This document shows positions 6,848 through 10,235 of a DNA stretch of 12,192 nucleotides, one piece after another; position 1 is the stretch's first letter; every line of letters starts with the position of its first letter. Source of the DNA: a virus; the UHGV virus genome UHGV-0062900. One strand, 5' to 3'. A program made the position numbers and the translations under genes. Under the pieces are notes generated by a model that ran no database searches, had not been told where the DNA came from, and was given only the letters and a program-made list of their open reading frames with translations.

Positions 6848-7676
6848 GACGATGCCCTCCGCTGATATTCAGGAGACGGTGAATATGAAGATTAGCCTTA
6901 TCCGCCAAACGAATACGTTCAGCCTGCAAGTTAAGAAGGGTTTCTACCAGAAGTTGATGCGCCTGCGGATCTGAAAGAGTTACCTTGCGCAGAGCACGTA
7001 GTGCTGTTGTTACATAACTGAGTTTATGTAAGTCTTCATCATTCAGACGAGTGAGGGCTGGGACAGTAGCCATGATGGCAGCCTCCTTGATCGGTGAAAT
7101 ACTTCCACCACCGGAAACGCCAATTTCGCTGGTGGTGAACTGAACGGGGTTGGCGTAACCGGTGATCAAGGAAACCGGCGCATCTTTCGATGCCCCCGCC
7201 CAGCCCACCATAACTTTGATGTGAGCAAATGCGGACGATAAAAAAGACGCTGGCGCGTCATATATCGCCTTGATCAATTCCAGGACGCCAATCCCGGCAC
7301 CCGCTTTATAAGGTGCCTGAACAGTGTAACGTCCCGGAATGGCAGAATCAATGTGCTGGTGGTCCTTCACACTCAATAAAATCACGCCTGAATTTCCACA
7401 AAGGACTAAAGCACTCATGCGGGTAGTCTTTGCGAAGATAGATAACGCGCTGTGTTTCTGGCTCCCAACGAATAACATGAACATAAAGTCCTCTTCCGTC
7501 ACGAAACCAGCGGTTAAGTTCCTGCACAACTCGCCCCCCACAGTCAGGTAAAGTTCTCTGTGGTTACTTACAGCCAGGTGATTTGGTAATCTGCATTCAT
7601 GCCGTAACAACAGGTGTTCAGCGACGCTGACCACCAGCTGTTGCGACAAACGGTTATTTGCCGTTAAACTGTTCAT
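6840..7676 (-). CDS. Hypothetical protein (278 aa) in the replication module; function unknown
   Basis: Long ORF, ATGA-coupled to the upstream gene. No Walker A motif, so not an obvious DnaC/P-type helicase loader. No family recognised. Confidence 0.5.
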   Translation of the reverse strand: MNSLTANNRLSQQLVVSVAEHLLLRHECRLPNHLAVSNHRELYLTVGGELCRNLTAGFVTEEDFMFMLFVGSQKHSALSIFAKTTRMSALVLCGNSGVILLSVKDHQHIDSAIPGRYTVQAPYKAGAGIGVLELIKAIYDAPASFLSSAFAHIKVMVGWAGASKDAPVSLITGYANPVQFTTSEIGVSGGGSISPIKEAAIMATVPALTRLNDEDLHKLSYVTTALRALRKVTLSDPQAHQLLVETLLNLQAERIRLADKANLHIHRLLNISGGHRHA

Positions 7677-8468: not shown

Positions 8469-8558
8469 ACAATATGTACCTCCGGTATACATATTACATG
8501 ATTAAAATGAACCTTCAAGATACTTGTACCTTATCGGTACAAAGGTTTTAATTTCGTT
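8469..8558. promoter_or_regulatory. Immunity switch region: divergent PR (leftward) and PRM-like (rightward) promoters with dyad operator candidates
   Basis: PR on the minus strand: -35 TTGAAG (complement of 8513-8518), 16-nt spacer, -10 TAATAT (complement of 8491-8496). PRM-like on the plus strand: -35 TTGTAC 8524-8529, 17-nt spacer, -10 TTTAAT 8547-8552, with cI ATG at 8559, implying a leaderless cI mRNA. Dyads: TTGTACC-ttatc-GGTACAA at 8524-8542; CATACAA-T-ATGTACC at 8466-8480, which resembles the OL palindrome. Confidence 0.55.
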
Positions 8559-9233
8559 ATGAAAACAATCCATGACATCCGGCGGTCTAACGCCAGAAAA
8601 CTGAGAGATGGTGTTGGCGGAAATTCATCCTTTGCCACCATGATTGATCGCGAGCCAACCCAAACCAGCAGGTTTATGGGGGATGGCGCTACTAAAAATA
8701 TCGGTGACAGCATGGCACGGCACATCGAAAAATGTTTCGACCTGCCTGTCGGATGGCTTGATCAAGAACACCAGACAACGAACATCACAAAAAAACCTGA
8801 TGTTTCAATCACTAACAAACAAATAACGTTAGTCCCTGTCATATCATGGGTACAGGCCGGAGCATGGAAAGAAGTTGGCTATTCTGAGGTTGATTTGAGC
8901 ACAGCAGAAACGTATCCCTGCCCTGTACCCTGTGGCGAAATGACTTATATCTTGCGGGTGATTGGTGATTCAATGATTGATGAGTACCGCCCTGGAGACA
9001 TGATTTTTGTTGATCCCGAAGTCCCTGCCTGCCACGGTGACGACGTTATTGCATTGATGCACGATACAGGCGAAACCACCTTCAAGCGATTGATAGAAGA
9101 TGGAACACAGCGTTATCTCAAAGCATTAAACCCAAACTGGCCTGAGCCTTACATTAAGATTAACGGTAATTGCTCTATAATTGGTACAGTGATTTTCTCG
9201 GGAAAACCAAGAAGATACACAATAAAGGCCTAA
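8559..9233 (+). CDS. CI-type prophage repressor with C-terminal S24 (LexA-like) autopeptidase domain
   Basis: 224 aa. C-terminal VIGDSMIDEY...GDMIFVDPE...TFKRL carries the Ser (GDSM) and Lys (FKRL) catalytic dyad; a candidate Ala-Gly cleavage site lies in VQAGAW. N-terminal HTH-like region. Divergent from cro. Confidence 0.85.
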   Translation: MKTIHDIRRSNARKLRDGVGGNSSFATMIDREPTQTSRFMGDGATKNIGDSMARHIEKCFDLPVGWLDQEHQTTNITKKPDVSITNKQITLVPVISWVQAGAWKEVGYSEVDLSTAETYPCPVPCGEMTYILRVIGDSMIDEYRPGDMIFVDPEVPACHGDDVIALMHDTGETTFKRLIEDGTQRYLKALNPNWPEPYIKINGNCSIIGTVIFSGKPRRYTIKA

Positions 9234-9245
9234 TCAATATTTATG

Positions 9246-9268
9246 AACCTGCTTCGGCAGGTTTTTTT
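9246..9268 (+). terminator. Rho-independent terminator downstream of the repressor gene
   Basis: aacctgc-ttcg-gcaggtt: 7-bp stem with GNRA-like tetraloop, followed immediately by ttttt(t), 13 nt after the cI stop. Confidence 0.7.
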
Positions 9269-9272
9269 ATAC

Positions 9273-9305
9273 TTGACAATGTACCCATGAGATACATAAT
9301 GTATC
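9273..9305 (+). promoter_or_regulatory. PL-like early-left promoter with overlapping operator palindrome
   Basis: -35 TTGACA 9273-9278, 16-nt spacer, -10 CATAAT 9295-9300. Perfect 15-bp palindrome GATACAT-A-ATGTATC at 9291-9305 overlaps the -10; an ATGTACC half-site lies in the spacer (9279-9285). Confidence 0.6.
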
Positions 9306-9872
9306 TAAAAGAAACATAACACAGGCAAGATTAAAACAAAATTTGGTTGTAACACGGCGTATGGCACATGCGTCGTTAGCGGTCTGGTGACGTTAAAGGG
9401 GACAATCCACTCCTTGCTCGAGCAAACAAACCAGGTAGCCGGAATGTGCAAGTCAATGATGATGCTGATAAGACGCCTAACCAGCGTGGCGATTCGGTTT
9501 GACGCCTGGGAAGAGACCAGGGTGCAACGATGAGGGCATTTATGGAGCCGCGACAAAGTGTGGTGCCGTAACTGGCTAAGTGCTCTCAGCGTTGTGGTAA
9601 TCCGCGAAATGGCGCGGCGGTAAGTATGGCGGGGTTACTCTTTCCCCGTTGAGGACACCGGATTGTCAGGTTGACCAGCCACTGCTTTGGCGGTACCAGT
9701 TTGTACCCTTGCTTCCGGCTGGTACCGCTCTTTTTACAAAACAGAGAAGAGCATCACCGGACGACGGGCTCATAACCCAATCCATCCGGGCGGCAGTCAC
9801 CGCAGGTGTTCTTCTCTGTTTTGTGGAGAAACCAACCGACCTTGCAGGGTCGATATGATGAGGAGCAGCAAA
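9306..9872 (+). other. Long ORF-poor structured leader of the early-left operon (candidate cis-acting RNA element or sRNA)
   Basis: About 570 nt between the PL-like promoter and the first well-supported start (9873), with no plus-strand ORF over ~30 codons having a Shine-Dalgarno. Long-range inverted repeat: 9731-9755 pairs with 9805-9829 (perfect 14-bp core acaaaacagagaag / cttctctgttttgt), enclosing the hairpin gcgg-cagtca-ccgc (9790-9803). Additional hairpin ccgcg-aaatgg-cgcgg at 9602-9617. Confidence 0.35.
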
Positions 9873-10235
9873 ATGGCTAGCGAACGCAGTACTGATGTGC
9901 AGGCATTTATCGGGGAGCTGGACGGCGGCGTATTTGAAACCAAAATCGGCGCTGTTCTCAGTGAAGTCGCTTCCGGTGTGATGAACACGAAAACCAAAGG
10001 TAAGGTCTCGCTCAACCTGGAAATCGAACCGTTTGATGAGAACCGTGTGAAAATCAAACACAAACTCTCATATGTTCGCCCGACTAACCGCGGGAAAATT
10101 TCTGAAGAAGACACCACCGAAACACCGATGTATGTCAATCGCGGTGGTCGCCTGACTATTCTGCAGGAAGACCAGGGACAATTACTGACTCTTGCCGGTG
10201 AACCTGACGGAAAACTTCGCGCAGCAGGTCATTAA
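9873..10235 (+). CDS. YfdP-like early protein (120 aa)
   Basis: ATG 9873 is preceded by AGGAG at 9861-9865 with a 7-nt spacer. Length 120 aa matches that remembered for K-12 CPS-53 YfdP. The track's longer ORF from 9687 is an unsupported N-terminal extension through the structured leader. Confidence 0.65.
   Translation: MASERSTDVQAFIGELDGGVFETKIGAVLSEVASGVMNTKTKGKVSLNLEIEPFDENRVKIKHKLSYVRPTNRGKISEEDTTETPMYVNRGGRLTILQEDQGQLLTLAGEPDGKLRAAGH

Follow-up and report, generated by a model that had tools for sequence, protein, structure and literature searches.

A candidate cassette of RNA modules in the untranslated early-left leader of an Escherichia coli lambdoid prophage

The leader and its locus

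The subject of this study is the 567-nt leader (positions 9306-9872) of the early-left operon in UHGV virus genome UHGV-0062900. The window, that is, the whole 12,192-nt stretch of DNA that was analyzed, is the immunity region of an Escherichia coli lambdoid prophage, and gene names are taken from the RefSeq annotation of a near-identical locus in strain 203740. In that annotation the cro-like gene ymfT is divergent from the ymfK repressor gene, and the plus strand continues, past a 640-nt gap, with yfdP, yfdQ (DUF2303), yfdR, more small genes, and an integrase gene beside the threonine transfer RNA gene (tRNA-Thr). This gene layout identifies the plus strand as the "leftward" early operon. 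The leader separates the early-left promoter PL from yfdP (Table 1), and includes a conserved pseudoknotted RNA domain, here termed module A, and a unit that resembles DicF, the small RNA (sRNA) of the Qin prophage. We put at about 0.6 the probability that the leader is an untranslated cassette of RNA genes heading the operon, one that generates an sRNA and also serves as an attenuator or insulator.

The promoter is overlapped by two operator-like sites. Relatives of these sites, including the best copies, are found at 8475-8541, between the cro-like and repressor genes, which marks the promoter as PL with its operators. The operator-like sites number five in all, two at PL and the other three in the cro-repressor intergenic region, and this layout appears to be the OR/OL arrangement expected for ymfK-type immunity.

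A preliminary description of the window, made from the letters of the sequence, had portrayed the leader as highly structured, poor in open reading frames (ORFs) and followed by no N-like gene, and this portrayal held. The only plus-strand ORFs between the promoter and yfdP encode 48 residues (GTG start, 9387-9533) and 69 residues (TTG start, 9649-9858), with neither a Shine-Dalgarno sequence nor a Pfam match. A protein-coding reading of these two, and of an 83-residue ORF on the minus strand, was rejected on the grounds of empty Pfam searches, unconserved frames and spacings that are not multiples of three; the leader holds no conserved ORF. The first protein of the operon, the yfdP product, is neither Arg-rich nor N-like. 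RNA folding, which had been proposed as a check, gave −215.9 kcal/mol for the whole leader, with z-scores relative to shuffles of −3.98 (plus strand) and −2.73 (minus strand), and singled out the long hairpin near the 3′ end (z −8.6).

The 567-nt leader was compared with 5,426 E. coli genomes and 50,697 phage records using BLAST. Leader positions 36-292 recur in P1-type phage-plasmids and phiV10/epsilon15-like podophages, positions 286-372 in most E. coli genomes, within the Qin prophage, and positions 371-567 in e14, SfV, SfII, SfIV, ST64B, and others. Judged by these matches, the leader appears to comprise three RNA modules, each recurring in other phage contexts, and not a simple 5′ untranslated region. 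The Rfam search that had also been proposed returned no family in the leader: at the gathering threshold the full window contains only C4 and isrK, on the other strand (7128-7316), and a search of 9200-9950 at E values up to 10 yielded only sub-threshold matches, all terminator look-alikes. ARAGORN and the Rfam tRNA model detected no tRNA in the window.

Table 1. Features of the leader and its immediate surroundings (CDS, coding sequence; SD, Shine-Dalgarno sequence)
Feature	Position	Strand	Evidence or remarks
Repressor gene, ymfK-like LexA/S24-type	8559-9233	+	Annotation of strain 203740 locus; Peptidase_S24 domain
Intrinsic terminator of repressor gene	9245-9271 (hairpin 9245-9264)	+	8-bp stem and T-run; −11.6 kcal/mol, z −5.3
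PL-type sigma-70 promoter	9273-9300	+	−35 TTGACA 9273-9278, 16-nt spacer, −10 CATAAT 9295-9300; 11/12 consensus positions
Two operator-like sites, TGTACC-N5-GGTACA	9280-9296 and 9300-9316	unstranded	Overlap promoter; picked up as direct/inverted repeat
Module A, conserved pseudoknotted RNA domain, ~170 nt	9351-9532	+	Covariance model R1, 142 bits, E 1.5e-41
Module A helix P1 (hairpin)	9355-9363/9367-9375	+	
Module A helix P2	9383-9387/9431-9435	+	Encloses variable domain
Module A invariant block GGUAGCCGGAAUGUGCAAG	9434-9452	+	
Module A helix P5 (hairpin)	9473-9477/9483-9487	+	Loop UCACC
Module A pseudoknot	9479-9482/9496-9499	+	P5 loop with GGUG
Module A helix P7 (hairpin)	9505-9509/9517-9521	+	Loop GAAGAGA
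Extension hairpin A′, GAGGGCAUUU ... AAGUGCUCUC	9532-9587	+	Alignments; in minimum-energy fold; common to phiV10-type loci
Module C, 5′ structured domain of DicF-type precursor	9591-9676	+	94% identical to Qin ~50-130 nt upstream of DicF
DicF-family sRNA body and intrinsic terminator	9677-9735	+	Alignment with Qin DicF and e14; −21.5 kcal/mol, z −3.1
DicF-family core UUGGCGGUACCAGUUU	9687-9702	+	Alignment with Qin DicF and e14 copy
Terminator hairpin, perfect 10 bp	9690-9699/9719-9728	+	Followed by CUCUUUUU; U-tract to 9735
Long hairpin, ~23 bp	9733-9828	+	RNAfold −49.1 kcal/mol, z −8.6; 0/200 shuffles as stable
Conserved block UGUGGAGAAACCAAC (UGUGGAGAAAC)	9822-9836	+	Block and hairpin recur in e14, mEp390-type and L156 versions
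Small GC hairpin	9836-9853	+	−8.5 kcal/mol; just upstream of yfdP ribosome-binding site
yfdP, first translated gene of operon	SD GAGGAG 9860-9865; CDS 9873-10235	+	RefSeq annotation; phrog_204, function unknown

A conserved pseudoknotted RNA domain

Alignment of the window with P1, phiV10, SPN1S, and mEp390 shows module A to consist of invariant blocks that alternate with variable hairpins bearing compensatory changes. Approximately 60 invariant, mostly unpaired bases surround the pseudoknotted core, in blocks that include AGCGGUC, GGUAGCCGGAAUGUGCAAG, and GGCG. A five-helix model including the pseudoknot was tested for covariation in 40 module A sequences less than 96% identical to one another. 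In this model 93.6% of cells are paired, and two-sided changes are seen in 13 pairs (89 cells). These values were matched by none of 500 shuffles, and controls in which the 3′ partner was slid by 1-3 columns gave 27-50% paired cells and at most 15 double changes. Compensatory changes, which the preliminary description had suggested seeking in homologs, are present in every one of the five helices; the pseudoknot has a C-G pair in 36 sequences and A-U in the other 4. The window carries the rarer compensated form of the pseudoknot (AACC/GGUU), and forms all 28 module A pairs with the exception of the last pair of P5 (9477:9483, C-A).

Only this strand gives frequent G-U pairs (pair 7:23 is GU in 19 sequences, 10:20 is UG in 38, and 33:94 is UG in 40/40), indicating that module A RNA is read in the PL direction. 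As an alternative, RNAalifold pairs GCACAU of the P1 loop with AUGUGC inside the invariant 19-mer GGTAGCCGGAATGTGCAAG, a pairing 100% compatible with the alignment but invariant. This long-range fold leaves the G-C/A-U covariation at 9:21 of the local P1 helix unexplained, and the modeled pairing may be a second pseudoknot that coexists with P1. The spacings between conserved blocks cover all classes modulo 3 (21/18/14 and 26/16/11), and no reading frame is open throughout across 53 homologs.

Module A is present as a single copy in the window, where profile and covariance model searches found no twin on the PR side, and model R1 has no match in HK022, Qin, or e14. A weak, shortened R1 match (21 bits, E 3e-4) at positions 2538-2658 of locus L005, downstream of an XRE-type repressor gene, looks like a decayed module A copy in the same leader position.

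Exact matches to the 19-mer were used to scan the distribution of the domain. The 19-mer occurs in at least 120 IMG/VR contigs and in 24 contigs of a one-genome-per-species collection, of which 22 (17 genomes) belong to Enterobacterales and two to metagenome-assembled genomes, one of the latter containing the 19-mer alone and no module A. The Enterobacterales carriers are Escherichia, Citrobacter, Klebsiella, Enterobacter, Kosakonia, Kluyvera, and Phytobacter, with Buttiauxella, Pseudescherichia, Pseudocitrobacter, Superficieibacter, and Ca. Erwinia as further carriers of module A. Some genomes hold two or three copies on separate contigs (L230/L249/L250 of Phytobacter ursingii; L233/L245; L231/L234; L243/L251). 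The domain is undescribed in the literature searched (the 19-mer, RNAs of the P1 ban region, and follow-ups of sRNA-17, an sRNA discussed below) and has no Rfam match. Module A looks like a widespread, apparently undescribed phage RNA family with strong covariation.

The genomic contexts of module A are diverse. In P1, it starts 12 nt past the CCA of trnI, extends to the ban leader (L007 1500-1790), and lies mid-operon with no terminator ahead of ban; a 14-codon ORF there has a stop codon overlapping the ban start codon (TAATG). In phiV10-type phages, module A is followed by extension hairpin A′ and then by a directly abutting tRNA-Arg(UCU), such that the end of the extension is the RNase P site of the tRNA, and a DicF-type terminator stands right behind. 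A same-strand tRNA-Ile just before, or tRNA-Arg just after, module A is found at a fixed distance in about 45% of 127 loci. In mEp390, the window, and many lambdoid contigs of IMG/VR, the domain lies downstream of a repressor gene and PL, and in the window type the −10 hexamer is ~50 nt upstream of P1. A promoter-like signal was detected upstream of module A in 35 of 129 loci (27%), versus 44 of 460 control windows (10%). The proposal that module A always starts at +1 was discarded, given that the promoter scan is positive in 27% of loci only and negative for phiV10. The first ORFs downstream, sampled from about 25 unrelated families or context types, include none that is N-like; those tested belong to PHROG "unknown function" families, and module A has no conserved protein neighbor.

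These contexts bear on the possibility that module A is released as a stable trans-acting noncoding RNA with a conserved host partner, protein or RNA, being freed by tRNA processing in P1 and phiV10 and by RNase III/E in lambdoid phages. ROOL and GOLLD, to which it may be likened, are structured noncoding RNAs of phages and prophages that are often tRNA-adjacent and have no known function; they are 500-800 nt long and occur mainly in Firmicutes and other non-enteric lineages, whereas module A is ~170 nt and restricted to Enterobacterales phages. The protein sponges 6S and CsrB offer a second comparison. Released RNA is the best fit to the abutting same-strand tRNAs (P1 trnI and the RNase P site of phiV10), and is consistent with a module that moves between unrelated genomes, with the largely unpaired invariant bases around the pseudoknotted core, and with the multiple copies in some genomes. 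However, ROOL, GOLLD, 6S, CsrB, and every other Rfam family fail to match it, and we hold this explanation as tentative and less likely than not.

A DicF-type unit

Downstream of module A, the window resembles the DicF locus of Qin in several respects. Both lie in the early-left operon of a lambdoid prophage, behind a repressor-controlled PL-like promoter. The 5′ structured domain, module C, corresponds to an 87-nt upstream precursor domain that Qin carries in the ydfC-dicB interval, with 46 nt separating its end from the Rfam DicF match; it is found at the same distance and in the same order, minus 29 nt in the window copy. It includes the hairpin 9602-9617 (CCGCG-AAAUGG-CGCGG), present just as first described. 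Shared also are the core UUGGCGGUAYCAGUUU, as the 5′ arm of a Rho-independent terminator with a U-tail, and a long stem that runs from the U-tract to just ahead of the ribosome-binding site of the next gene. The core and CCGCYCUUUUUA are invariant in the aligned window, strain 203740, Qin, and e14 sequences. The window and DicF differ in the 3′ arm and loop, the window stem being a perfect 10-11 bp (−21.5 vs −15.9 kcal/mol for DicF), in the 5′ seed UUUCUGGUGACG of DicF, which is absent from the window, and in the next gene, which is yfdP in the window and dicB in Qin. A cluster of GGTACC motifs had been noted here and is present at 9690-9728, but its role had gone unrecognized: the motifs are the arms of the intrinsic terminator.

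Searching for the core brought up, besides canonical DicF, the window type, the e14 type, and further types, and in all of these GGCGGU... is the 5′ arm of a terminator. The terminator stems covary across types (GGCGGUACCAG/CUGGUACCGCC; GGCGGUGAU/AUCACCGCC; GGCGGUCG/CGACCGCC; GGCGGUGG/CCACCGCC). A terminator of the form UUGGCGGU...ACCGCC-U4 lies 246-918 nt downstream of module A in 80 of 131 distinct loci and upstream of it in none, and canonical DicF loci are without module A according to the R1 search. Downstream of module A in P1, a remnant of the DicF 5′ end, AUUUUCUGGUGA (DNA GATTTTCTGGTGATGAC), is the only trace of DicF kept there.

The DicF-type unit begins with GUUGUGG; the pairing partner of this strand, CCACAAC, directly precedes the sRNA body. 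Three different inserts occupy the space between these strands (loci L008 1742-1818; L003 3000-3115; L018/L023): the Qin-type domain C, an unrelated domain C2 found in sRNA-17, and in phiV10 a real tRNA-Arg(UCU), the acceptor stem of which starts GUGG...CCAC. Module C occupies the slot of the phiV10 tRNA and shares with it only this stem base. The exchange of inserts between shared strands suggests that cassettes are swapped at the base of the tRNA acceptor stem. Domain C, considered as a candidate four-way junction, allows two mutually exclusive CGGRUUG pairings, with one compensatory change each among 53 distinct but very similar copies. Compared with L001, the window is without 29 nt, CATACGCCTGAGTGACAACCCCACCACAA, at 9676/9677, between CA microrepeats. 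This deletion, absent from the 5,426 E. coli genomes and from 124 related loci, removes CCACAAC, the 3′ side of the stem that closes the precursor, so that processing of the window precursor may be impaired.

The biogenesis of DicF has been studied in Qin, where a 190-nt species is RNase III-dependent, a 53-nt species is RNase E-dependent, and no internal promoter for DicF was found (PMC10448788). A 72-nt form has a 3′ end made by RNase III just past the terminator (PMC5069750). The 190-nt species is the one with the ~137-nt upstream precursor domain.

A sister copy of the window unit has been published as sRNA-17 of E. coli K1 RS218, a 193-nt RNA mapped by rapid amplification of cDNA ends and Northern blot (Front Microbiol 2020, PMC7719688), and the sRNA suggested for this leader by the preliminary description has thereby found a counterpart in the DicF family. 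The primers and supplementary alignment identify sRNA-17 as the C2 version of the DicF-type unit, extending from CGUUGUGGUGAAUGCG to CUGGUACCGCUCUUUU; its authors drew no connection to DicF (PMC7719688). It has in common with the window the prophage family (mEp460-like), the site upstream of yfdP, the 5′ start GUUGUGG, and the terminator end GCGGUACCAG...CUGGUACCGC. In the terminator half, one loop base differs (ACCC in the window, ACAC in RS218), whereas over the full length identity is confined to ~10 nt at the start and ~65 nt at the end; between them RS218 has domain C2, and the window the Qin-type domain C with its deletion. The authors' list of "degenerative sRNA-17" includes CP010157 (strain D10; 99.9% identity to the window), and their primers for checking by polymerase chain reaction match window positions 9463-9483 and 9851-9871. 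By these comparisons, the DicF-type unit is a known element, described as the DicF family and as sRNA-17, with the window copy a damaged variant.

Deletion of sRNA-17 raised yfdP expression 95-fold and that of yfdR too; the deletion construct keeps the terminator and inserts a pKD cassette (PMC7719688). The rise of yfdP may reflect an effect in cis on the adjoining downstream operon.

A strong terminator between PL and all early-left genes makes some read-through mechanism plausible. The preliminary description had pointed to put of HK022 (putL and putR), an RNA of ~70 nt with two stem-loops and a copy downstream of each early promoter (PMC9378689). The put RNAs suppress termination in cis by way of the β′ zinc-binding domain. 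Like put, module A lies early in the PL transcript of an N-less lambdoid phage, and the logic of an RNA element followed by terminators would be the same, hypothetically. In contrast to put, it is ~170 nt long, has five helices and a pseudoknot, is a single copy, and is also tRNA-adjacent in P1 and podophages. Searches of HK022 positions 20,000-32,000 with nhmmer and the covariance model gave no match to module A. Membership of the put family was accordingly rejected on every point that could be tested (sequence, size and architecture, copy number). The GGTACC motifs and the inverted repeat are the terminator and a probable RNase III stem, rather than parts of an antiterminator.

A functional analogue of put from an unrelated family is a separate proposal, and one we judge unlikely. 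Module A would then be a cis-acting, factor-independent antiterminator or anti-Rho RNA that loads on polymerase and passes the DicF-type terminator and Rho sites, reaching yfdP through xis/int; it would represent a self-sufficient RNA family common to P1, epsilon15-like, and many N-less lambdoid phages. Such a role would suit the promoter-proximal position, with the −10 hexamer ~50 nt from P1 and the excess of promoter-like signals (35/129 vs 44/460), as well as the strong terminator downstream in 80/131 loci, behind which all early-left genes of the window lie. It would also suit the 25 context types without an N-like first gene, and a near-invariance across unrelated phages, as would be expected if the target were a conserved host component, for example RNA polymerase. 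However, module A is unlike put in sequence and architecture and has no second copy on the PR side. The phiV10-type unit (module A, tRNA-Arg, terminator) looks self-complete, in P1 the domain is mid-operon without a terminator before ban, and Qin expresses dicB past the DicF terminator without module A. Two loci, L089 and L033, also have an rrn-type boxA after module A, consisting of a hairpin and a perfect boxA (UGCUCUUUAACAA) ~130 nt past the 19-mer. The idea that module A generally goes with an rrn-type boxA was rejected, only 2 of 129 distinct loci showing this arrangement.

The same terminator could in principle be controlled by module A as a riboswitch-like leader that senses a metabolite or tRNA and tunes passage. 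In favor are its place close to where the transcript begins, the terminator farther downstream, and a core of several helices and a pseudoknot whose junction bases do not vary. The terminator is, however, 150-800 nt away with a whole tRNA or folded domain between, and no alternative pairing between P7 and the terminator was found. Considering also the P1 context, where there is no terminator, and the absence of any riboswitch family match, this is the least probable of the explanations weighed here, and a very improbable one.

The 3′ end of the leader

The arms of the inverted repeat (9736-9760 and 9800-9824) are 84% complementary, and form a long hairpin with a 5′ arm that starts in the terminator U-tract. 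The repeat had been recognized earlier and is real, as is the GC hairpin that it encloses (GCGG...CCGC), but the coordinates were ~5 nt off and a second small hairpin, also at the top of the stem, had been missed. By analogy, the long hairpin is a probable RNase III substrate. In other terminator types, a stem of 8-25 bp likewise begins in the U-tract, one type having four pairs only. These stems are unrelated in sequence between types (ACAAAACAGAGAAG..., ACAGCAGGACGCC..., CACAACUGAAAGCGCG...). For the Qin stem GUGAAUUUUGUGAUG, the partner arm, read from the sequence, is ~165 nt downstream, beyond the stretch that was folded, and in the e14 copy the pairs of the window stem are kept via G-U/G-C changes.

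Several protein annotations cover this part of the leader. K-12 ymfH (L004 3363-3674), L005 3361-3671, and window ORF 9649-9858 are all situated on a DicF-like terminator and a covarying long hairpin. PGAP labels the terminator-plus-stem region a "frameshifted hypothetical protein," and ORF 9649-9858 has a phrog_33599 match over residues 27-63. Comparison of these loci suggests that ymfH-type coding calls and phrog_33599 are probably RNA, and spurious as proteins.

Two further explanations place the function of the leader outside RNA. The authors of the sRNA-17 study treat module A DNA as a promoter with an ArcA box, and report ArcA-dependent expression (PMC7719688). The predicted box (GTTA-N14-GTTA) maps to window positions 9375-9396, which fall within helices P1 and P2, and module A could on this basis be the ArcA-regulated promoter of sRNA-17; alternatively, the leader could be decayed coding sequence, as the PGAP and K-12 ORFs over the terminator and long stem and the phrog_33599 match would suggest. 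Both are very unlikely. Five helices with compensatory changes and strand-specific G-U pairs argue for RNA and not for a protein-binding DNA site, module A is also present where no sRNA-17-type unit follows, as in P1, and the Qin study found no internal DicF promoter. As for coding, neither the frame nor the length of the ORFs is constant from type to type, and these ORFs carry frameshift flags and sit on a hairpin with covarying arms.

Proposed role of the leader

The interpretation we favor, an untranslated RNA cassette, can be set out as a series of steps, in which the transcription start, the fraction of polymerases terminating, the RNase cleavages, and any trans targets are inferences. 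What the sequence comparisons establish directly are the boundaries and homologies of the modules, their covariation, the absence of coding potential, and the geometry of terminator and stem. When the LexA-like repressor leaves PL, transcription from near 9307 would make module A first. The partner of module A is presumably a host component, given that the domain is near-invariant across unrelated enterobacterial phages. Polymerase would next make the DicF-type unit, consisting of the folded 5′ domain, the hairpin GCGGUACCAG...CUGGUACCGC, and the U-tract. A large share of polymerases would stop at 9735, giving a leader RNA of ~430 nt, which RNase III and RNase E would process into a stable sRNA with the terminator hairpin at its end, as for DicF and sRNA-17; with these precedents, processing of the DicF-type unit is very likely. 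In read-through transcripts, RNase III would cut the stem 9733-9828 and so part the noncoding RNA from the yfdP message, which would keep the 5′ hairpin 9836-9853 beside its ribosome-binding site. Through termination and RNase III cutting, the cassette would both supply an sRNA and attenuate or insulate the early-left genes.

Several points weigh against this interpretation. Module A, about a third of the leader, is explained by it only as a "conserved structured RNA," and the transcription start near 9307 is placed by consensus match and not mapped. The DicF model RF00039 (gathering threshold 48 bits) leaves the window unscored in 9200-9950 even at E values up to 10, the Qin copy scoring 76.7 bits; what ties the window unit to DicF is a 16-nt core, synteny, the terminator, and the upstream domain that the two have in common. 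The 29-nt deletion may have left the window copy defective, and the resistance cassette placed in the sRNA-17 mutant could account for the 95-fold rise of yfdP. DicF is characterized by antisense complementarity to the translation-initiation region of ftsZ, by Hfq binding, and by RNase E processing of its 5′ end. In RNAduplex, pairing with the ftsZ leader had z-scores of −0.56 for the window and −1.39 for DicF, a crude comparison that ignores accessibility. Within this comparison the window DicF-like RNA gave no signal of ftsZ targeting beyond chance, and the known targets of DicF are probably not carried over to the window variant.

The cassette joins DicF, sRNA-17, and many unannotated gaps behind enterobacterial prophage early-left promoters as one recurring arrangement, in the order 5′ domain, tRNA or folded insert, UUGGCGG terminator, and RNase III-type stem, and would offer a cis explanation for the derepression of yfdP in the sRNA-17 mutant. 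The part most worth following up is the covarying pseudoknotted RNA domain in the model phages P1, phiV10, and mEp390, for which there is no Rfam family. Since the genetics of P1 and E. coli are easy, the function of module A is directly testable, with an effect on polymerase, host-factor binding, and processing as candidate roles.

Elsewhere in the window, the PR-side operon carries an Rfam C4 antisense RNA (82 bits, 7128-7215, minus strand) beside isrK (64 bits, 7240-7316, minus strand), and the two overlap the 5′ part of an ORF annotated as "ash family protein." In its arrangement, this pair looks like the antisense control module of the P1-immI/Gifsy type.

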